This document shows positions 1-8,574 of a stretch of 8,574 bases of DNA, in pieces. The DNA is from a virus (taxonomy: Duplodnaviria; Heunggongvirae; Uroviricota; Caudoviricetes), in the IMG/VR virus record IMGVR_UViG_2693429733_000011, positions 1-8,574 of that record. One strand, written 5' to 3'. Both the position numbers and the translations under genes were made by a program. The notes beneath the pieces were generated by a model, which was not told the DNA's origin, did no database searches, and saw only the letters and a program-made list of their open reading frames with translations. Position 1 is the first letter of the stretch; each line of letters starts with the position of its first letter.

Positions 1-21
1 CCTCAAAAACACCATCATACA

Positions 22-276
22 CTAAATCAGTAAGTTGGCAGCATCACCACTGTTCAGGGTGTCATACGGTGTTGCATCCATTGCCAGCACAGCGTCGCGA
101 ACCGGTGCCGGGATAACGCCCGGTGGTGGCTCATAGCGAACAAACTCCCTCCGTGGTTTCTGCCGGACGGAAGCGATCACCTCATCGTTAATTTCCGGTG
201 GCTGTGGTTCAGGTTGTTTGTCCGGTACCGCCGGCGCTGACGGTTCTTTTCGTTTAAACGGCCACATCAGATCCAC
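22..276 (-). CDS. hypothetical small proline-rich phage protein (84 aa) immediately downstream of the terminase large subunit
   Basis: ORF from the supplied track; its ATG at 276 overlaps the terL stop by 10 nt; codon usage looks host-like (CCG, CTG). I recognise no family. A head-tail joining or portal-adjacent gene would normally sit here. Confidence 0.35.
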
Positions 277-1886
277 TCCATAAAGTCATCAGAAATTACG
301 ATGGGCATTTCCATCGGGGCATAAGCAATCATCACAGAATCAGCCAGGTTTGGAGATTTCGTTCCGTCAGGTTGCTTATCCACAAGAATTTTTCCGGTGG
401 CATTTTTTGACCAGGTAGGTTGTGACAGCTCCATCAACAGCCGGTCTTTATTTTCCATTGTGCTGCTGATGGAAATAATCTCATCCGGGTCATACTCCAT
501 ACCCTGTAGTGCACGAAATGTATTGCGGAATAATTTGCGAAGATGCCACCACCCCTGGGCTTTGGCATTGACAAAAAAGTCCTTATTCAGACGAGCCGGT
601 TTACCATTATCACCGGGAACAGCTTCATTTTCAGGATGAAACACGCTCCCGCTGCCCCGGAATGGAGTGGCGGTGATTTGACAGATGCCCTCCGCTTCAC
701 GCAGTTCGTTGATAGCGCGCGCATCACCACGAACGCCAGCACCCAATCCGTCCTCATCAAAGCGAAACTCATCGGCACCAAAGTCATCGCACAGACCAAA
801 AACCTTAACCACAGAGTCATAGATGTCACTCCCCTTACCTGACCACTCCTGTACGTCATTCAGCAGGATGCCATAACGGAGCGAACAGGCGTTTTTATCC
901 CGCCCTTCGTCGGCGACATCCATTGCACCAAGCCGTTGGCCGCCGGGCTGAATGCCCAGTCTGATATGTGCATCAACCGCAGCCTGTACCCATTCTGAGG
1001 GGATCAGGATGCCTTCTGCTGATGCCTGGTAATTAAGATCCAGTTCCTGGGCAACGATGACTGGGTTATCAATTTTCTCGCACTCCTTGTGATACCACTC
1101 ATCGTCTTTACGCGGATCGCTACGCCAGTGAAACGTAAACACCGGGATTTTTCCACTGTGCCGCTTCTGTGCGAAGGGGTTGTTCATGCCGTTAACCGAT
1201 GAGAGATCGATACGACATCGGGTTGTCTGGGAAAGCGCGGCATCAATAAGTAATGGTCGCTGGAGAAAAGCAGCCTCATCCACAAAATAAAGGGTCGTAC
1301 GGTCACCACGACCGATATTATCGCCAGCCTCACCTTTGATAACCGCGCCAGTTTCAGGAAACTCAACACGCATATATGGCGCGTGCTTCTTCTCGCTCCA
1401 CGAACCGCGAAACTCTACAGGTAGAGTTTCCACGAACTTGCGCGCCTTCCAGAACAATGCTTTCGGGTCACCGGTGCTGTCGACGTATTCCTCTTTACGG
1501 GAGCCGAAACCGATAACCATTTCTTTGTTGAAGAGACAAAGCGAGCAGGCCAGTCCGATCGCGGTCCAACTGAGCCCCATTTCACGGGATTTTTCGGTAA
1601 TACCATTCTCCCGATTGCTCCAGCGTTCCATAATCCAGTGGATCCACTCCTCCTGCTTAGGGAAGAGTAAAAACGGAATGGTCACCGGCAGGCCATAATC
1701 AATATTACGCGGGTCCGTTGTCATGCCCCAGTCGATAATGAACTGAGCCGGGTTGGTACGGTAAAACTGTTTTAGTGCAGGCAATATTTCAGGATTCTGG
1801 CGAATGCGCTGTAGGCGTTCCATCCGCCATTCAAAAACCATCTGGTAATCAGGATGTTTAAAATCGAAGGGGAATGGTAACGGCAT
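267..1886 (-). CDS. terL: phage terminase large subunit (539 aa)
   Basis: Size and position directly downstream of a clear terminase small subunit; its start at 1884-1886 lies 2 nt downstream of the terS stop (1889-1891), i.e. the genes are adjacent; acidic C-terminal region consistent with a nuclease domain. Family assignment is by recall of the gene pair's layout, not by search. Confidence 0.7.
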
Positions 1887-1888
1887 AC

Positions 1889-2443
1889 TTAGCCCATCAT
1901 TTTTCTATACACCTCTGCGGCCTGCTCAGGCGTTAATTTGGTAATTTCTGTTCTGACTGGTCCTCCGTCAGCGCCAGTCACTTCATTTTTGACGTTGTCT
2001 TTAAACGCCTGAACAGAAACATGGCGCCCAAGCAACTCAAGGTTTTTAACCTTATCAGGCCATTTGATTTTCTTCAGAAGTGCGGCGCTATCTGCGGATA
2101 CCATCTCCACGACATCCATTCCTGATAGCGTTGTGCGCCATACCTTAGGCCAGTCTTTAATGGGCTTTAGCTCACCGTTTTGCAGGAGAATGTCGAGCAC
2201 ATCCATCTGGTCGATTTCAACCAATCTACGAAGAACATAAGCGGCATCTATACCTACCTCTTCGTTTCGCTCGGCTTTAAGCTCAGCAATGCGCTTTGCG
2301 ATATTAGCTTTTATTAGGTTTTTGCATCCTTGTACGGCGGCAGAATCCTCACTGTAACCCGCCCTGATGGCTGCTTGCGTGGCATTGAGATCTTTCAGGT
2401 ACTCACGGGCAAACAGCTCTTGTTTGTCGGTGAGCTTTGCCAT
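1889..2443 (-). CDS. terS: phage terminase small subunit, Terminase_2/P27-like with N-terminal HTH (184 aa)
   Basis: N-terminus [31 protein letters not shown] matches the hallmark small-terminase HTH motif (KQExFxxEYL...[12 protein letters not shown]); GGAG ribosome-binding site 8 nt upstream of the ATG; immediately precedes terL. Confidence 0.8.
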
Positions 2444-2470
2444 TATTTGTGCTCCGTTTATCCGTTAAAA

Positions 2471-2492
2471 GGGATATCAGTTAAGTTATCCC
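2471..2492 (-). terminator. weak hairpin (GGGATA-N10-TATCCC) followed by a short T-run on the minus strand, upstream of terS
   Basis: Read directly: plus-strand gggatatcagttaagttatccc; minus-strand copy is followed by TTTTAACGG. Stem is only 6 bp and AT-rich, so it may be a weak terminator or attenuator. Confidence 0.2.
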
Positions 2493-2523
2493 GTGTAGGG
2501 TATAAGCCATTATCAAGCCCACC

Positions 2524-2540
2524 AGTAGATGGACTTTGTA
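2524..2540 (-). repeat. copy A of a 17-bp motif (minus strand ACAAAGTCCATCTACTG), upstream of terS
   Basis: Read directly: plus cagtagatggactttgt; 15 of 17 positions identical to the copy at 3543-3559, same orientation. Confidence 0.5.
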
Positions 2541-2566
2541 ATGAAGAGCCGTTGTGAAAGTAGCTC

Positions 2567-2779
2567 TCAGGTTGTCATTTTTTCCCTTTTCTGCCTACCT
2601 GCCCACTGTTTTGCAATGTACAGGCAGTCATCGAAAACTCGGCCTTTTCTGCTGGCTTGTGAACAACGGCGGTAATGCTCCACCGCCATGTCAGCGCCAG
2701 TCATAGCCGCGTTCTGGTCGTACCCAAGCTTTATTAACTCGGTTGTTACATTTTTATGTATGAAATCAATCGGAGTCAT
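2567..2779 (-). CDS. hypothetical small protein (70 aa), translationally coupled to the upstream Rha-like gene
   Basis: ORF from the track; its ATG (2777-2779) overlaps the stop of the upstream gene (2776-2778) in an ATGA arrangement. No family recognised. Confidence 0.4.
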   Translation of the reverse strand: MTPIDFIHKNVTTELIKLGYDQNAAMTGADMAVEHYRRCSQASRKGRVFDDCLYIAKQWAGRQKREKMTT

Positions 2780-3372
2780 GCTGGTTTACCATCAGGGAAA
2801 TCCCCCATGTCACATAGCTTGAACTGAATCAGATCCTTCACAAGCTGCTCAGCCTTTTTAATGGCCTTCTTCTCTTTCTTCCGACGAGTCATGAGAGCGC
2901 TACCTGCTTGACCGTGCATTTCAAATGAGAACTTCTCAGCAGCCGCGACACGGTTTTGCATTTCGCTGATTGCCATATCGGTCAGGCCAGAGAAATCGAG
3001 GAGGTTAATGTCCTTCCCGCCCTCAAGCTCCGTCATGTGGTCATACACCTGCGCCTGAAGCTCATAGCTGTAGCTCATTGCCATGAGGCAAGCTTCACGC
3101 TTGGGAAAATTGCAAATATCCCTCTCCACAACACCACCTGTTCCGTTGATATAGGTATCAGTTGCAAAAAATTTTGCAGCTGCATCCCCGAGGACCCTGG
3201 GTACTTTCTTCATGAAACTGCGGTGTTCGAGTTTGCGATATTTCTTACAGGGGAACGCAAGCCCCTCCGCCTCCGCTTTGGATTTCCGATCAGCATTAAT
3301 GTAATCCACCATCTCAAGACTGCTCATGGTCGGGTATTCGCCAGAAGGAAGAACGGTTAATGATTTGTTCAT
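2776..3372 (-). CDS. putative phage regulatory protein, Rha/antirepressor-like (198 aa)
   Basis: Central segment FATDTYINGTGG...CLMAMSYSYELQ loosely resembles the Rha (ORF6N-type) domain pattern; AGGA ribosome-binding site about 9 nt upstream of the ATG; sits in the moron slot between lysis and packaging genes. Assignment is tentative, by recall only. Confidence 0.35.
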   Translation of the reverse strand: MNKSLTVLPSGEYPTMSSLEMVDYINADRKSKAEAEGLAFPCKKYRKLEHRSFMKKVPRVLGDAAAKFFATDTYINGTGGVVERDICNFPKREACLMAMSYSYELQAQVYDHMTELEGGKDINLLDFSGLTDMAISEMQNRVAAAEKFSFEMHGQAGSALMTRRKKEKKAIKKAEQLVKDLIQFKLCDMGDFPDGKPA

Positions 3373-3513
3373 GTCGGTATTTCCTTTAGAAAGTTGAGCC
3401 TGTTCGCACAGAAAAGCCGTCCCCGAGAGGTCCTCACCTATACGGCAGTTCTCAGGCTCAGCTTTCTGAAAGACTCGGGATTGTTACGCGCTGCGATGCG
3501 CGGTTTACTGCGG

Positions 3514-3541
3514 ACATATAAAAGCCCCGCAAGTGCGAGGC
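3514..3541 (-). terminator. intrinsic terminator downstream of Rz/Rz1 (minus strand)
   Basis: Read directly: minus-strand GCCTCGCACTTGCGGGGC forms a GC-rich stem with one G-U pair, followed by TTTTATAT. Confidence 0.4.
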
Positions 3542-3542
3542 T

Positions 3543-3559
3543 CATTAAATGGACTTTGT
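3543..3559 (-). repeat. copy B of the 17-bp motif (minus strand ACAAAGTCCATTTAATG), between the Rz stop and the terminator
   Basis: Read directly: plus cattaaatggactttgt; 15 of 17 identical to the copy at 2524-2540. Confidence 0.5.
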
Positions 3560-3574
3560 GATTTGCAAAAAAAT

Positions 3575-4042
3575 TTATTTCAGGCACTGAGTCCTGATGT
3601 ACTCCTGAAGCATTCTCAATGCTGTCTGGTCGCTGATGATTCCGTCCCGGATACCGAGAACGTTTCGTCCAGCAACTGGAGAGAGTTCGACGGTGGCATC
3701 ATTGCCCATGCCGGAGGCGCTGGAGGTTTCGGCTGAGGATGGCACAGGGCATTTTCCTTTGACGAGCACCCGACCACCATTATCAAGCTTGCGCCGAAGA
3801 GCATCATTTTCAGCTTTCGCATCAGCTAACTCCTTCGTGTATTTAGCATCGAGTGCATCAGCATCACGCTGGCGCTGCTGCATGTCAGTAATGGTTGCGT
3901 TCGCCAGCTTCAGTTCTCTTGCGTTTTTGTCGCGCTGCTCTTTGTAGGTAATGGCGTTATCACGGTAATGATTAACAGCCCATGACAGGCGGACGATGAT
4001 GCAGATAACCAGAGCGGAGATAATCGCGGTGACTCTGCTCAT
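3575..4042 (-). CDS. Rz: Rz i-spanin (inner-membrane spanin subunit)
   Basis: N-terminus [17 protein letters not shown]...[14 protein letters not shown]...[13 protein letters not shown] closely matches lambda-type Rz as I recall it; the ATG at 4040-4042 overlaps the endolysin stop. The track's start at 4054 is a GTG, 12 nt upstream. Confidence 0.85.
3616..3822 (-). CDS. Rz1: Rz1 o-spanin lipoprotein, embedded in the +1 frame of Rz
   Basis: MRKLKMML...VVGC lipobox followed by a proline-rich stretch ([11 protein letters not shown]), and fully nested inside Rz, as in lambda Rz1. Confidence 0.75.
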
Positions 4043-4529
4043 TGCTGCCCCCACAAACAGACTTCACGCTCAATCTCACGACGGGTCATCAGCCCTTTCC
4101 ATTGCTTACCGCCAGCATATGTCCAGCGACGTAGCTGGTCACATGCGCCTTTGATATCGCCCTGGTTTATTTTGCGAAGAAGCGTCGATGTTCTGAAATT
4201 GCCAGCGCCCACGTTGTAAACGAACGAGTAAAGAGCGCCGCGCGTTGTTTCCGGTATATCGACTTTGATGTACGGGTTAATTTGTCTGGCGACAGTGGCA
4301 AGGTCTTTATTCAGGAGAGCTTTGCATTCTGCTTCGGTATACGTTTTACCNNNNNNNNNNNNNNNNNNNNNNNNNNNNNNNNNNNNNNNNNNNNGATATC
4401 TTTGTATGGTATGTAGCTGACACCTTCCAGACCATCGTTACCACCTGGGCCAGTGATTAACACAGATGCTATAGCAACAGCCCCGCCACCAATAGCAACT
4501 GCAACAGCCTTGCGTAATGATGGCGACAT
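4039..4529 (-). CDS. R: SAR endolysin (phage-21 R-like lysozyme), interrupted by an assembly gap
   Basis: N-terminal Gly/Ala-rich signal-anchor-release domain ([45 protein letters not shown]); after the N-run the in-frame translation resumes [16 protein letters not shown]...[18 protein letters not shown], typical of T4-lysozyme-like phage endolysins. The start overlaps the holin stop and the stop overlaps the Rz start. Confidence 0.85.
4351..4394. other. run of 44 N (assembly gap or masked sequence) inside the endolysin gene
   Basis: Read directly. Both flanks are codon-aligned to the endolysin frame, but 44 is not a multiple of 3, so the true length differs; by recalled homology about 17 codons are missing. 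Confidence 0.95.
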
Positions 4530-4744
4530 TATTCACCTCTCGCAGCCTTACGCTTGTCTTCTCTGATTTTGAAGTACAGATTTGTCAGATAAGTCAGGAA
4601 GCCCAGAACCAGACTCCCCAGTACACCAATCGCAGCCCACTGTGACGGACTGACCTGATCAAGCCACTGTAAAAACCAGTAGCCGGCACTGCCTGCGGAG
4701 GTGCCGTAGGCAATGCCCGTTGAAATTTTGTCCATGGATTTCAT
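4529..4744 (-). CDS. S: class II pinholin, phage-21 S21 / EssD-type (71 aa) with dual-start MKSM motif
   Basis: [71 protein letters not shown] is near-identical to S21/EssD as I recall it; strong ribosome-binding site GGAGGTGA upstream. Confidence 0.9.
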
Positions 4745-4804
4745 AGCCTCACCTCCGCAAATAACGGATGGCGTAGTTTTACACTGAGAAATGAAAGGGA
4801 TTTG

Positions 4805-4828
4805 AAAAGAAAAAACCGCAAAAGCGGG
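4805..4828 (-). terminator. weak terminator-like hairpin (CCGC-TTTT-GCGG) plus long U-run, about 60 nt upstream of the holin start
   Basis: Read directly: minus-strand CGCCCGCTTTTGCGGTTTTTTCTTTTC. The stem is only 4-5 bp, so termination strength is uncertain. Confidence 0.3.
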
Positions 4829-4904
4829 CGAAACGATATATACAGTAAGGAAAGCACTCTATCCAACAAACCACTCACAGTTAATCGGAATAAAAGCAGA
4901 GTGC

Positions 4905-4977
4905 TTATGAATGATCGCCTGCCCGAAGGTTAGTATTTCTGCACAGCAATTTTGCAAAAAAAAGCGATCATTCATAA
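4905..4977. repeat. perfect 14-bp inverted repeat (TTATGAATGATCGC / GCGATCATTCATAA) separated by 45 nt
   Basis: Read directly at 4905-4918 and 4964-4977; lies in the non-coding slot between the tRNA array and the holin. Confidence 0.8.
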
Positions 4978-5036
4978 CTTAAACGTCTTTCAGTCACTCC
5001 GGGATTTCCCATCATCGCAGACTGAAAGACTCTAAC

Positions 5037-5111
<75 letters not shown>

Positions 5112-5114
5112 ATA

Positions 5115-5189
<75 letters not shown>

Positions 5190-5191
5190 AC

Positions 5192-5268
5192 TGGACCGCC
5201 ACCGGGGACTCGAACCTCGCACACTCAACTTAAAGGGTTGACGCTCTTTCCTGATGAGCTAGTGGCGG
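5192..5268 (-). tRNA. tRNA-like gene, anticodon UUU (Lys) by position, with non-canonical features
   Basis: Acceptor CCGCCAC/GTGGCGG, D-arm GCTC/GAGC, anticodon stem TCAAC/GTTGA with loop CCTTTAA (C at position 33 instead of U), T-loop TTCGAGT with one A-C mismatch in the T-stem, CCA encoded. Confidence 0.45.
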
Positions 5269-5269
5269 T

Positions 5270-5345
5270 TGGTGGCCCTTGCTGGATTTGAACCAGCGAC
5301 CTGGCGATTATGAGTCGCTCGCTCTCACCACTGAGCTAAAGGGCC
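5270..5345 (-). tRNA. tRNA with CAU anticodon, most like ileX-type tRNA-Ile2 (lysidine), alternatively elongator tRNA-Met
   Basis: Acceptor GGCCCTT/AAGGGCC, anticodon loop CTCATAA, T-loop TTCAAAT; high similarity to E. coli ileX as I recall it. CCA encoded. Confidence 0.75.
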
Positions 5346-5450
5346 GGGCGCAGGATAATAACGTTACGAAATCAATGTTGCAAGCATTCAAAAATCACCC
5401 TTATCTCCTCCACCAGCGCATTCACCATGTCTATCCGGGATAAGTGGCAC

Positions 5451-5480
5451 AAAAAACCCGCTTGTGGGCGGGTTTTGTTT
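5451..5480 (-). terminator. intrinsic terminator (bidirectional hairpin), candidate tR'-like late terminator downstream of the Q-like gene
   Basis: Read directly: minus-strand AAAACCCGCCCACAAGCGGGTTTTTTGTG; the stem CCCGC/GCGGG is flanked by an A-run and a T-run, so it could terminate on either strand. Confidence 0.6.
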
Positions 5481-5527
5481 GCTTTTGCCATCACGTACAA
5501 AATCGGCAAAATATCAGATTTGCATGA

Positions 5528-5556
5528 AATATATGCCTTTCAATCTACTTTTGCAA
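5528..5556 (-). promoter_or_regulatory. sigma70 promoter, candidate late promoter (pR'-like), overlapping the 3' end of the Q-like gene
   Basis: Read directly on the minus strand: -35 TTGCAA (5556-5551), 17-nt spacer, -10 TATATT (5533-5528). The predicted start near 5521 would give a transcript of about 70 nt ending at the terminator at 5451-5480, analogous to the lambda 6S / pR'-tR' unit. Confidence 0.45.
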
Positions 5557-6234
5557 CACTTTGCTTTGAAAATGCCGTCTTTTTTTTGAACGTGTTCTCA
5601 TTACAAACAATAAAGCCTCACTATCCAGTCGGTGAAAAATGTGTTTCATTGCAACCCAGTGACGAGTAAATGTTTTGGACCAGTTTTTAGTTGTCACTCC
5701 CGCCAGTAATGCCAGCTCCTGGTATTCATAACCTTCCCCACCAAAAAGTTCTGCTTTTACTGCCTGCGCCGCCAGCCAGATTAATTTTTTCAGGCGTTCC
5801 TGCGTTTTCCCTGCAATTTTTCTGGTACCGGATTGAGCATTAAATTCATTCCACGCCCACTGTGTTATCGCGATCTGATATTCCCAACAAATACTCCCGC
5901 TGTAACACCACAACAACCAGGCTTTATGATGTTCTTCAAGAGACAGAACAGCCCGCCGCCACGATGATGTCGAAAACCCAACCGGACTGACCAGAGGAAT
6001 TGACGTCCCCTTCGCCAGCGATTGCTTTCCCGGGATTGGTGGATTATCCCGCGTTATCATTTTTCCAGTCACTTCATCGCGGTACCGGATTTTTTTACGC
6101 CTGTAACGCCCTGTATCGAACATGGCATTCTCTTGCCAGGCTTCAAGCTGACCTTTTGTTGCCCCACTCAAATCAGCGGTGGCGATAATGAGCTGCTCAC
6201 GCACAAACTGTAAATACTGGTTATTCATGCGCAC
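5545..6234 (-). CDS. putative late-gene antiterminator, Q-like (229 aa)
   Basis: Call rests on synteny only: directly downstream of rusA and directly upstream of a promoter plus terminator, a tRNA array and the lysis cassette. I do not recognise the sequence as lambda Q. Confidence 0.4.
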   Translation of the reverse strand: MRMNNQYLQFVREQLIIATADLSGATKGQLEAWQENAMFDTGRYRRKKIRYRDEVTGKMITRDNPPIPGKQSLAKGTSIPLVSPVGFSTSSWRRAVLSLEEHHKAWLLWCYSGSICWEYQIAITQWAWNEFNAQSGTRKIAGKTQERLKKLIWLAAQAVKAELFGGEGYEYQELALLAGVTTKNWSKTFTRHWVAMKHIFHRLDSEALLFVMRTRSKKRRHFQSKVLQK

Positions 6235-6590
6235 CCCAGTTCTGTGATTTTTATCCCCAGCCGCCCACCAGGAACGAGCTGACCGCGCACAATATTGATT
6301 TCATCAAACTGCTCGTCGTCTATAAGTAGTCCAGCATGCGTCAGCGCATCCAGCGGTGCCTTCAGGATATTGTCCAGGTCACGACGGCGCTTATCCGGTG
6401 GCTCTGCAATAATCTTTATCGCCAGCCTTCCGGACAGGTTTAATTTCAGTCGCTGCTGGCGAACAATTAGCGCCACATCACGGCGATAACGCTTTCCGGC
6501 TTCCGAGATGAAATACGTATTGCCATGACGTCGCCAGTAGGTATTCACCGTCGGCGGGTAAGGCAAAACAAATTCTATGCGTTCAGTCAT
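6225..6590 (-). CDS. rusA: RusA-family Holliday junction resolvase (121 aa)
   Basis: Motifs LPYPPTVNTYWRR, DKRRRDLDNILKAPLDAL and GGRLGIKITE match the RusA signature (PPSxNxYYR ... DRRRRDLDN ... DAL ... GGRL). Confidence 0.85.
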   Translation of the reverse strand: MTERIEFVLPYPPTVNTYWRRHGNTYFISEAGKRYRRDVALIVRQQRLKLNLSGRLAIKIIAEPPDKRRRDLDNILKAPLDALTHAGLLIDDEQFDEINIVRGQLVPGGRLGIKITELGCA

Positions 6591-7649
6591 TCATGCTTTC
6601 CACTTCAGGACACCCGAATTTCTCGCGTGCATTAAAAAACGAATCAGCAACAACAGCTGGCTGCCGTGTTTTTCTTCAAAATCTTTTACCCCGGCGTGCA
6701 GTTCGTTATGACATTTACGGCACAGCGGAATAACAAACAAATCATCAGCCTTTGTTCCCATCCCTCCCAGTCCATGACCAATGATGTGATGCGGATCATC
6801 TGCCTGATTGCCACACGTCATGCATTTCTGCGTTTTTACCCAGCGCGTGTATACGGGCATCTCTTCCCGTTGTGGTTTCTGGCGCTGGAGATACTGAGCC
6901 GGAGAATCCGGATCAACGGCAATGCTGACCACCGTCTTTTCCTGTGGTGGATTCTGTTGCTGGTGGGCGTGAGGCAACGGCGCAATATTTTTTGTGCGCT
7001 GCTTCAGTATGCTGGTGGCGGTCTGCGCTCCCGGTACGATATCGCTTTCGCGGTATACTGAGCGGATTTTTTCTACCGGTAATCCCAGCGAACGACGTAA
7101 TACTGCCTCCGGTAGCGCGTCCGCCACCTGATTGCAGAGCGCCCACCAGGATAATTCAGCCAGCGATAATTCCCGCTCCTGTGTGCCATTCATTGCATGG
7201 CGTATGACGTCAATCATCCATGCTGACAGGTTTTGATGAGCAAGTTGCCCGAGTGATTCGGAGGTCTGGTCACGCAGCTGGTTGTCGCAGTGCCAGCACA
7301 ACACCATCGCACCGGTACCATAACGATGTATGACGATTTCGCTGTGATGATAGTCACCATGAGGCCACTGGCAGGATTTAACGTGGCGTAACAGCCAGTC
7401 AGACAGTGCACCAGCACCGCCAGCAGCACGAATCACACGCTCATCGCTGAAAAATGGCAGTAATGATTTGTCCTCCGCCAGCGGCTGGCGAACGGCAGGA
7501 ACGACCCCGGACGGCAGATTACGCATGCTTTTCGGTTCCGGCTCCACCAGTACCCGGGTATTGTGGAATACCGGCATGGATTCACGGCCCGGCTTAACGA
7601 TCACCAGCCCGAGTTCCGGTACCAGAACAGGTCGAAGTAATACCCGCAC
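6591..7649 (-). CDS. prophage nin-region protein with a C-terminal HNH-type zinc-finger motif (DUF968/YdfU-like, 352 aa)
   Basis: C-terminus CMTCGNQADDPHHIIGHGLGG...LCRKCHNELH shows a CxxC...HH...CxxCHxxLH arrangement; a second Cys/His cluster (CQWPHGDYHH...CWHCDN) lies further upstream; sits immediately upstream of rusA as DUF968 genes do in lambdoid prophages. The likely start is GTG at 7649 with a GGAGG site upstream; an ATG at 7577 is the alternative. Confidence 0.5.
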   Translation of the reverse strand: MRVLLRPVLVPELGLVIVKPGRESMPVFHNTRVLVEPEPKSMRNLPSGVVPAVRQPLAEDKSLLPFFSDERVIRAAGGAGALSDWLLRHVKSCQWPHGDYHHSEIVIHRYGTGAMVLCWHCDNQLRDQTSESLGQLAHQNLSAWMIDVIRHAMNGTQERELSLAELSWWALCNQVADALPEAVLRRSLGLPVEKIRSVYRESDIVPGAQTATSILKQRTKNIAPLPHAHQQQNPPQEKTVVSIAVDPDSPAQYLQRQKPQREEMPVYTRWVKTQKCMTCGNQADDPHHIIGHGLGGMGTKADDLFVIPLCRKCHNELHAGVKDFEEKHGSQLLLLIRFLMHARNSGVLKWKA

Positions 7650-7650
7650 G

Positions 7651-7929
7651 TTACCTCCAGATGCGTTGCTGGAATGTGCGGGACGGACGCGGTGGGCGTT
7701 CAGAGTAAGGAAGCCTGACGGAGATTATCCAGTGACGATAATCGAGGCTGAGGGCTTTCTTAATCTCGTATCCGTGTCTGCGGTAGCACTGAATTAGCCA
7801 CTCGGCCTGTTCTTCAGTGCATGGGTCATGCTGGAACCAGTCAGATTTGAAAGTGCGGGAACGCCGCCCGTGCCTGCTGGCAAAGACGGCAGAATCATCA
7901 GAATTGTGTAATTTGGTATCGTGCGCCAT
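7651..7929 (-). CDS. hypothetical nin-region protein (about 92 aa from the ATG at 7929; the track's 110-aa version starts at a TTG)
   Basis: ORF ends 1 nt before the DUF968 start (operon-like packing); no family recognised. Confidence 0.35.
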   Translation of the reverse strand: MAHDTKLHNSDDSAVFASRHGRRSRTFKSDWFQHDPCTEEQAEWLIQCYRRHGYEIKKALSLDYRHWIISVRLPYSERPPRPSRTFQQRIWR

Positions 7930-7998
7930 CGGTTGTCTCTGCTGGCGCAGCAGGTGCCAGTTGTTCAGGCTGGCGTGCGGCAATATTGTCTCTGATTT

Positions 7999-8029
7999 CT
8001 GTTGTCGTCAACAGGCAGCGTGCTATCAT
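7999..8029 (+). promoter_or_regulatory. putative parDE promoter with an overlapping palindromic operator
   Basis: Read directly: inverted repeat CTGTTG-tcgt-CAACAG (7999-8014) overlaps a -35-like TTGTCG; -10-like TATCAT at 8024-8029; parD ATG at 8065 is preceded by a GAGG ribosome-binding site. Confidence 0.3.
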
Positions 8030-8064
8030 CGAATAGTGTTCTATCCTACTCCTTGAGGTTTACC

Positions 8065-8322
8065 ATGCGTACAACCCAACAATTCAGCATTACATTAACT
8101 AACGAGATGGCTGACATGGTGCGCGCCCGTGTGGCTTCCGGTGCCTATGCTTCAGAAAGCGAGGTCATTCGTGAAGGGCTTCGCGCACTGAATGAGCGCG
8201 ATAAAGCAATCGAAGCGTGGTTAACGCATTCAGCCGCCCCCTCTCTTGATTCTATCCGCGAAAATCCAAACAACGGACGCTCCATTTCACAGGTTCGCGC
8301 CGCGATTCGATCCGGAAAGTAA
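8065..8322 (+). CDS. parD: ParD-family type II antitoxin (ribbon-helix-helix, 85 aa)
   Basis: SITLTNEMADMVRARVASGAYASESEVIREGLRAL matches the ParD (COG3609) signature (SxxLTxx...SGxYxSASEVxRxxLRxL); GAGG 6 nt upstream of the ATG. The track ORF 8002-8322 contains it with an upstream extension. Confidence 0.8.
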   Translation: MRTTQQFSITLTNEMADMVRARVASGAYASESEVIREGLRALNERDKAIEAWLTHSAAPSLDSIRENPNNGRSISQVRAAIRSGK

Positions 8323-8327
8323 TCTGC

Positions 8328-8574
8328 ATGACATATGAAGTCATCATTACTCCTGAGGCCGAACAACAAATAATCAACCTGCACAGATATATAACTGAGA
8401 AAGCAGGGAACGTCATTGCTGACAATTATGCCAATGCACTTCTTGATTATCTTGATGGGTTTTCTACATTCCCGCATCGGGGCAATAAACGCGATGATAT
8501 TCGCCAGGGGATGCGGGTAACTCATTTCCGCCACAGAACGATTATTGCTTTTGCCGTTGATGACAATAAAGTTT
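8328..8574 (+). CDS. parE: ParE/RelE-family toxin, 3' end truncated by the window edge (82 aa visible)
   Basis: My translation from the ATG at 8328: MTYEVIITPEAEQQIINLHRYITEKAGNVIADNYANALLDYLDGFSTFPHRGNKRDDIRQGMRVTHFRHRTIIAFAVDDNKV; starts 5 nt after the parD stop, the typical antitoxin-toxin order and spacing. Absent from the track because no stop codon falls inside the window. Confidence 0.75.
   Translation, partial: MTYEVIITPEAEQQIINLHRYITEKAGNVIADNYANALLDYLDGFSTFPHRGNKRDDIRQGMRVTHFRHRTIIAFAVDDNKV

Follow-up and report, generated by a model that had tools for sequence, protein, structure and literature searches.

Conserved elements that likely wall an accessory-gene slot between Rz and the packaging genes of enterobacterial lambdoid phages

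The window described here is a stretch of 8,574 nucleotides (nt) from a Caudoviricetes virus (IMG/VR record IMGVR_UViG_2693429733_000011, positions 1 to 8,574), whose genes, all on the minus strand, are arranged as in a lambdoid late operon. Between its Rz and terS genes sits a cassette of two genes, coding for a Rha-like protein of 198 amino acids (aa) and a 70-aa partner, and a copy of a 17-nt motif is found near each end of it. Our analysis indicates that a terminator after Rz (T1) and a conserved non-coding junction element (block E, which opens with the hairpin H2) are likely the fixed walls of a slot for accessory genes, located between Rz and the packaging or head genes of enterobacterial lambdoid phages and prophages. 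The cassette is nothing out of the ordinary at its position, a known hot spot for accessory genes in the lambda-like prophages of E. coli. The 17-nt motif is no site in itself, its two copies being the A-rich front shoulders of two late-transcript hairpins.

The slot and its borders in the window comprise the following features, including open reading frames (ORFs) and stems given in base pairs (bp).

3575-4054, minus strand: Rz spanin gene (PF03245, E 2.4e-30), the upstream fixed neighbour of the slot
3515-3543, minus strand: T1, predicted intrinsic terminator after Rz, GAGCCTCGC-ACTT-GCGGGGCTT followed by TTATATG
3370-3517, minus strand: cassette leader of about 150 nt, with a GC hairpin at 3487-3502 and a long imperfect hairpin at 3383-3473, ending at the ATG of the 198-aa gene
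2776-3372, minus strand: 198-aa ORF for the Rha-like protein, the first cassette gene
2567-2779, minus strand: 70-aa ORF, overlapping the 198-aa ORF by 4 nt (ATGA)
2508-2543, minus strand: H2 stem-loop, CATTACAAAGTCCA-TCTACTGG-TGGGCTTGATAATG, with a 5-bp outer helix, a 2x2 internal loop and a 7-bp inner helix
2446-2543, minus strand: block E, a conserved non-coding junction element of about 100 nt made up of H2, GGCTTATACCCTACAC, H3 and TTTTAACGGATAAA
2471-2492, minus strand: H3 hairpin, GGGATA-N10-TATCCC, within E
1889-2443, minus strand: terS (Terminase_2; PF03592, E 3.5e-37), the downstream neighbour in this phage only

Results

Variable cargo at a fixed position

In the window, the exchangeable segment runs from just past the U-tract of T1 (~3519) to just before H2 (~2544). 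The phages Kati and mEp460 are without the cassette; T1 is kept in them with E directly after it, window positions 2457-2543 adjoin T1, and the start of H2, CATTACAAAAGCC..., comes about 10 nt after the terminator. In other relatives different genes occupy the place of the cassette. In HK620 the same two elements enclose a KilA-N gene (hkbK) and hkbL, phage 2B8 has a canonical Rha gene in the same slot, and the layout in P22 is gene 15, a T1-like terminator, a leader, rha and H2. The last 120 nt of Rz in the window are 93-94% identical to those of Kati, mEp460 and HK620. One locus, L128, stacks units in a single slot, with three leaders, two T1 copies and two H2 copies in the order T1, leader, truncated ORF; terminator, leader, Bro-N gene, 67-aa gene, H2; T1, leader, KilA-N gene, 85-aa gene, H2/E.

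Over 85 loci the distance from Rz to E varies from 202 to 2071 nt. The cargo of the slot includes KilA-N proteins, Rha proteins with an ORF11CD3 tail, Bro-N proteins and a T5orf172/MUG113 protein, as well as DUF4406, Gp49/66 family and DUF551 proteins. The cassette has two of the attributes looked for in accessory cargo, a late-strand position between Rz/Rz1 and the terminase genes and presence/absence polymorphism. Accessory genes inserted between conserved phage genes are termed morons, and the original prediction had assigned the cassette to such a moron slot and proposed an alignment of Rz-terS junctions as a check. Both the many cargo types at a fixed position and the alignment, in which the cassette is present, absent or replaced among otherwise collinear relatives, bear out that assignment, while the 4-nt ATGA overlap and the PF03245 and PF03592 neighbours agree with its description of two coupled genes between Rz and terS. 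The composition of the cassette is not foreign, its GC fraction of 0.445-0.525 being comparable to that of terS (0.46-0.485) and of Rz (0.49-0.56).

Two further kinds of cargo were observed among the loci. The slots of L016 and L073 hold a protein with a Tad2-like Thoeris anti-defence domain (PF11195, E 6e-22), and that of L068 holds a ParE/ParD toxin-antitoxin pair.

The two probable walls

The downstream wall, block E, has 3550 occurrences in the set of 5426 complete E. coli genomes, all of them unannotated; they fall in 2560 of the genomes, with six as the highest number in any one genome. Its fold has a z-score of -4.2 and both of its edges are sharp. At the upstream edge, 46 different contexts converge at (C/T)AT(T/C)ACAAA, and at the downstream edge 32 contexts diverge past TAACGGATAAA, where terS, a DUF2560 gene (hkbM/P22 orf80 type) or unrelated sequence follows; BLAST breakpoints recur at 2457 and 2438. 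The IMG/VR loci, 120 in number, were gathered with an exact 28-nt pattern from the H3 core inside E. E, T1 and H2 are absent from the K-12 cryptic prophages DLP12 and Qin.

Within E, H2 falls into four sequence classes with one fold, in which the 2x2 internal loop is conserved. Across 25 distinct variants, 98.3% of cells are paired and 7 of the 12 pairs show compensatory changes, as compared with 28-52% in slid controls, though these counts stand for only ~4-6 independent lineages. The unit is found on the late-operon strand only, and its pairing falls from 98.3% on that strand to 94.7% on the opposite strand owing to G-U pairs. Extra, stand-alone copies of H2 follow cassette genes in many other loci, and a compensated H2-like hairpin follows the homologous gene pair of the Erwinia phage Midgardsormr38. 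Rfam searches of the whole window and of subregions returned no family for the leader, H2 or E, with only isrJ and isrK matches below threshold. The stop codon of the 70-aa gene is overlapped by a small hairpin next to H2 (2544-2568, minus strand; GAGAGCU...GGCUCUU). In L128 this hairpin is conserved behind the homologous genes, and the Erwinia phage keeps it in part.

The upstream wall, T1, reads GAGCCUCGC-ACUU-GCGGGGCUU followed by a U-tract as RNA. According to the terminator scan its stem (3522-3543) has nine pairs, six of them G-C, and with this G+C-rich stem-loop and U-tract it is predicted to be an intrinsic (Rho-independent) terminator.

The 17-nt motif as hairpin shoulder

On the minus strand, copy B of the motif (ACAAAGTCCATTTAATG) lies at 3543-3559 and copy A (ACAAAGTCCATCTACTG) at 2523-2539, one base away from the 2524-2540 first reported. 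As claimed, the two are identical at 15 of 17 positions, and the window has no third site within two mismatches. A hairpin had been described after each copy. That is correct for copy B, which is the 5' flank of T1 and whose last base opens the T1 stem, but copy A is itself the ascending 5' arm and loop of H2 (12-bp stem), with H3 located downstream. The reported bracketing of the cassette by the motif is also only half right; the right edge (~2543) coincides with the start of H2/E, whereas the left edge (~3517-3519) lies past the U-tract of T1 and not at copy B.

As a bare repeat, a 15/17 match is ordinary, with three independent direct pairs in the window compared to a mean of 2.2 in 20 dinucleotide shuffles. 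A separate shuffle test on the motif pattern is circular, as the pattern was built from these same two sites. Given such unremarkable statistics, it is the comparison with related phages that makes the resemblance real. In all 24 distinct related contexts, the sequence before T1 matches the first downstream H2 at 11-15 of 17 positions in a fixed register. The window is the maximum (15/17) of the 24, relatives with the same cassette reaching 13/17, and its extra match stems from a C-to-T change at 2533, where T is a derived G-U wobble variant in H2 and C the usual base. The resemblance is thus systematic; it belongs to the two walls and is not peculiar to this cassette.

The sequences preceding T1 take two main forms. 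Form a, TGCAAATCACAAAGTC[C/A/T]ATTTAATG, is found in 24 distinct contexts with differing cargo, the window among them, and the corresponding pattern for copy B, TGCAAATCACAAAGTC[C/A/T]ATTTAATGAGCCTCGC, likewise recurs in 24 distinct contexts; form b, AGTCAT(T/C)ACAAA(T/C)ACCAGGATTT, is found in 38. Rarer flanks without the motif precede T1 in P22 and L128. In the collected loci CAYYACAAA has 179 late-strand matches, about 10-fold more than the ~18 expected, and these almost always stand directly before T1 or H2. A coincidental likeness of two unrelated A-rich hairpin flanks would fit the repeat counts (about two such repeats per shuffled window, three in the real one), the lower match in same-cassette relatives and the derived T at 2533. 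However, the in-register match in every one of the 24 contexts and the enrichment of CAYYACAAA before T1 and H2 make coincidence improbable.

From its sequence, copy B resembles part of an H2-type hairpin, namely the 5' flank, arm and loop. Its match to these parts is 11-15 of 17 for several H2 classes, it includes the loop CATTTAATGAG, identical to the H2 loop of P22, and after it the sequence switches abruptly to the T1 stem. In the cassette-less phages, the 40-nt T1 unit lies between two exact copies of CATTACAAA spaced 49 nt apart. These traits could reflect an insertion, of which copy B would be the relic. A terminator-plus-cassette segment would have recombined into an ancestral H2, splitting it or duplicating part of it; copy B would be the left half of that hairpin, and the two copies a historical junction scar. 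Such a history is compatible with T1 and E being walls, as an account of their origin, and may be what happened, although we think it rather doubtful. No empty site shows a single-copy state, the variable segment begins past T1 and not at copy B, no recombinase or transposase is associated with it, and A-rich 5' flanks may be convergent in terminator-like hairpins. A simple target-site duplication by this cassette is excluded, as the empty sites of Kati and mEp460 keep CATTACAAA on both sides of T1; in addition, the left repeat does not abut the variable segment, T1 lying between. Therefore, the recombination junction put forward earlier does not hold as a simple insertion scar, but a weaker form of it does, in which the walls are conserved boundary sequences where cargo would swap.

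Two other roles suggested for the motif, as an operator shared by one regulator such as the Rha-like protein or as repeated TerS recognition elements ahead of terS, find little in the comparison to favour them beyond the placement of the copies in two intergenic regions with inverted repeats nearby. At least 80% of the cassette region (2300-3700) is present in 17 of the 5426 complete E. coli genomes, as against the 2560 with E, making the motif-bearing elements about 150 times commoner than the cassette, and they flank unrelated cargo. In Midgardsormr38 and Enterobacter prophages, conversely, the homologous gene pair is found without the motif, an observation that had been named beforehand as one that would speak against an operator or cassette boundary. 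An operator for the regulator of the cassette was also rejected for lack of co-occurrence, the pair being without the motif in loci L125 and L134. What follows E may be a DUF2560 gene, non-coding sequence or terS, and E accompanies different terminases and packaging modules, which argues against terminase recognition; H2 conserves base-pairing and not sequence. Either role is accordingly contradicted by the distribution and very improbable.

Copy B and T1 could also be read as part of a small RNA. The T1 stem closely resembles the terminator consensus of isrJ (Rfam RF01393), a weak Rfam match covers the whole model at 3521-3603 (18.7 bits, E 0.16 in a 161-nt search), and IsrJ is encoded downstream of an antirepressor-like gene in Gifsy-1 (PMC4825925). 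The region would then give an IsrJ-like small regulatory RNA from the 3' end of the Rz message, with the motif in its body or seed. Yet the score is far under the gathering score of 37 required for membership, the aligned 5' part is mostly Rz coding sequence, no promoter is predicted and copy A is left unexplained, so that such an RNA has little probability.

A structured leader before the first cassette gene

The leader has a minimum free energy of -65.6 kcal/mol (z = -3.0). At the base of its long hairpin UCUUU is predicted to pair with the Shine-Dalgarno (SD) sequence AAGGA. The fold is kept in six divergent versions of the leader, including that of the Erwinia phage. A covariance model, R1, was built from 11 sequences, the same number of leader variants as was folded with RNAalifold. 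In 77 sources it matches 46 leader copies, and every one of them stops at the start codon (ATG) of a gene whose protein has a DNA-binding domain; the rha leader of P22 scores 74 bits and that of HK620 146 bits. In the alignment of these copies, which was fitted to the model, 95.4% of cells are paired and 14 of 26 pairs are compensatory (slid controls 29-46%), and pairing drops to 85% on the opposite strand. A leader that sequesters the ribosome-binding site, of the silent IsrK type, is thus predicted here, the SD sequence lying at the base of the covarying hairpin. We infer from this modelled structure that the leader holds translation of the first cassette gene low.

A second, weaker leader copy (50 bits) is located elsewhere in the L050 contig (11112-11257) before a 54-aa ORF (MLKREDALRLFNYNPDTGILTWRI...), indicating that the leader is not confined to the Rz-terS slot. 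In P22 (L141 1449-1603; OQ031658.1 39492-39646), the annotated start of rha (orf201), at locus position 1532, falls inside the leader. By the leader model, the conserved ATG is at 1601, 69 nt further downstream, which suggests that the real P22 Rha protein is shorter than annotated.

Just downstream of Q, the segment 5451-5524 (minus strand) has Rfam matches to isrK and isrJ below threshold (22.7 and 24.5 bits) and is probably a short terminated transcript from the late promoter. Trans-pairing of the IsrK kind between the RNA downstream of Q and the leader was no better than in shuffled sequences, with a duplex of -39.5 kcal/mol versus a shuffle mean of -43.5 kcal/mol.

The two cassette proteins

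The 198-aa protein has 1867 homologs, in a large, enterobacterial cluster that NCBI names the Rha family. It reaches no Pfam or NCBIfam threshold and has no match to PF09669 even at E<=10. Several homologs at 70-78% identity carry PF09669 and the protein is 24% identical over its full length to annotated Rha proteins, among them that of phage 2B8, so that together with the family name the earlier designation as Rha-like is sustained. The AlphaFold2 model (predicted local distance difference test score, pLDDT, 75.5) has a helix-helix-wing, winged-helix-like N-domain and two long C-terminal helices ending in GDFPDG; it finds no Protein Data Bank (PDB) match at E<=0.001, only faint winged-helix hits. 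In its C-terminal half the protein shares 34% identity with Bro-N proteins. Its tail aligns weakly with ORF11CD3-type tails (hhalign probability 43%) and, judged by sequence, is possibly ORF11CD3-like.

For the 70-aa protein no Pfam or NCBIfam family was found, in line with the original prediction. It belongs only to phrog_4439, where function is given as unknown, and has 27 homolog clusters. A Pfam hit to RMF (E 0.027) was below the cut-off and treated as noise. The AlphaFold2 model is a confident three-helix bundle (pLDDT 82.6) without a PDB match at E<=0.001, its sigma-domain-like hits being non-significant. In E. coli and Enterobacter prophages, homologs always come after a GDFPDG-tailed protein of about 190 aa with a 4-nt overlap, and this coupled pair is seen both in the Rz-terS slot and in an early operon near kilR, gam and recT. 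The pair is also present in Midgardsormr38, at 77% and 51% identity. Other homologs of the 70-aa protein include one from a Proteus phage, whose neighbour is a cII-like gene, and some from virulent siphoviruses. A strict partnership with the GDFPDG-tailed domain is weakened by these, and the association of the two appears frequent, not obligatory. A PADLOC scan gave no defence-system model matching either cassette protein, and the anti-defence role suggested earlier is not supported. The 70-aa ORF is left unannotated by the NCBI pipeline in the near-identical prophage of E. coli CFSAN029787 (L127 6144-6477; NZ_CP011416.1).

Other features of the window

Upstream of the slot, the late operon of the window has the following features.

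5545-6234, minus strand: gene for the Q antiterminator (PF06323)
5037-5345, minus strand: four tandem tRNA genes in the Q-holin interval, given by ARAGORN as Gly-TCC, Thr-TGT, Lys-TTT and Met-CAT
3616-3822: Rz1-like ORF embedded in Rz

Holin and lysozyme genes lie between the tRNA genes and Rz, and a large terminase-like ORF accompanies terS. Positions 2300-3700 are 99.2% identical to the CFSAN029787 prophage, in which the tRNA genes at the same position are annotated as Val, Thr, Arg and Ile. The lysozyme gene holds a run of 44 N at 4351-4394 (masked or unsequenced bases), through which its ORF is not readable. A plus-strand ORF of 106 aa at the right end of the window (8002-8322) reads as ribbon-helix-helix or ParD-type antitoxin-like (...SESEVIREGLRALNERDKAIEAWL...).

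Discussion

If T1 and E are walls, as is likely, the cargo between them would typically consist of a leader that buries the ribosome-binding site, a regulator-like gene, sometimes a small coupled gene, and a copy of H2, and such units could be stacked in one slot. The DNA-binding N-domain of the regulator would vary (Rha, KilA-N or Bro-N) and would often be joined to a similar helical C-tail of the ORF11CD3 or GDFPDG type. We infer that the walls and the leader provide stretches of homology through which cargo is exchanged by phage or host recombination, and this would give rise to the sharp mosaic edges. Conserved boundary sequences as targets of recombination are an existing model for phage mosaicism (PMC3233612). 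Under this scenario, T1 would halt transcription that is not Q-modified, H2 may serve as a transcript-end, processing or insulating hairpin, and the leader would keep translation of a potentially harmful regulator low until its structure is opened.

Several points weigh against the slot with walls as just set out. A classic moron has its own promoter upstream and a terminator downstream. The promoter scan gave no sigma-70-like promoter in 2300-3700 and the clear terminator, T1, is upstream of the cassette and not downstream, so that the cassette is not a classic self-contained moron. The terminator scan called neither H2 nor H3, and H2 is without a proper U-tract. The pattern with which the IMG/VR loci were gathered biases that sample to E-bearing phages and renders its conservation of the H3 core one by construction, and with many loci being close relatives the lineages behind the covariation counts are few. 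The functions of T1 and H2, as well as the sequestration of the SD sequence, are predictions only, drawn from modelled structures. Lastly, sharp mosaic edges can also arise via illegitimate recombination plus selection, with the walls not being targets.

The closest counterparts of the slot are in P22 and HK620. The P22 segment runs gene 15 (Rz), rha (orf201), orf25, orf80, orf59c and gene 3, and its HK620 equivalent Rz, hkbK (KilA-N), hkbL, hkbM, hkbN and gene 3. Like the window, both have a slot from spanin to small terminase with a terminator after Rz, a leader, a Rha or KilA-N gene, and H2 with E-like sequence. The window differs from them in its divergent Rha-like protein, which fails the Pfam Rha model, and in the coupled 70-aa gene, absent from P22 and HK620. 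Moreover, its E abuts terS directly, whereas P22 and HK620 have a DUF2560 gene (orf80/hkbM) there, and both phages have other flanks before T1 and thus lack a close copy B. Proteins with Rha, KilA-N or Bro-N domains and an ORF11CD3 C-domain (PF09669, PF04383, PF02498, PF10549) share the two-part architecture, slot and leader of the window protein, although the latter is below every Pfam threshold and its link to ORF11CD3 is suggestive only.

Morons and mosaics with boundary sequences are similar to the window in their presence or absence at a fixed position, flanking terminator-like hairpins and short conserved intergenic blocks at the edges. Unlike morons, the window has no own promoter that was detected for the cassette, a composition like that of the neighbouring genes and an SD-sequestering leader before the cargo. 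This suggests that the cargo is expressed from the late transcript under translational control and not autonomously in the lysogen.

For the leader, the closest described analogue is the isrK-orf45-anrP-isrJ region of Gifsy-1, in which the messenger RNA for an antirepressor-like gene is transcribed but translationally silent via leader structure (PMC4825925). A terminator-bearing small RNA follows there, and the window has the weak isrJ- and isrK-like Rfam matches described above. The Gifsy-1 locus comes directly after Q, and its activation involves the short trans-acting IsrK RNA and an upstream ORF of 45 codons (PMC4825925); the window cassette comes after Rz, and its leader has no Rfam isrK match. 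It can tentatively be proposed, as a possibility to which we give somewhat low odds, that T1, leader, gene and H2 form a post-transcriptional gate for toxic regulators, the hairpin possibly being a target of RNase III or a trans-acting RNA, and that the 198-aa and 70-aa proteins are an antirepressor or anti-defence pair in which the latter would bind the GDFPDG C-domain.

That direct repeats around a phage cassette can be neither the signature of site-specific insertion nor a protein-binding site calls for caution in motif-based boundary calls. With T1 and E/H2, the slot is defined at nucleotide resolution, and thousands of E. coli prophages could be mined with this definition for accessory and anti-defence genes. 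The analysis also brings to light two unannotated RNA elements supported by covariation, the putative SD-sequestering leader, which precedes Rha, KilA-N and Bro-N genes, and H2; both are also in P22. The leader and H2 make the long-unexplained control of rha-type genes directly testable.

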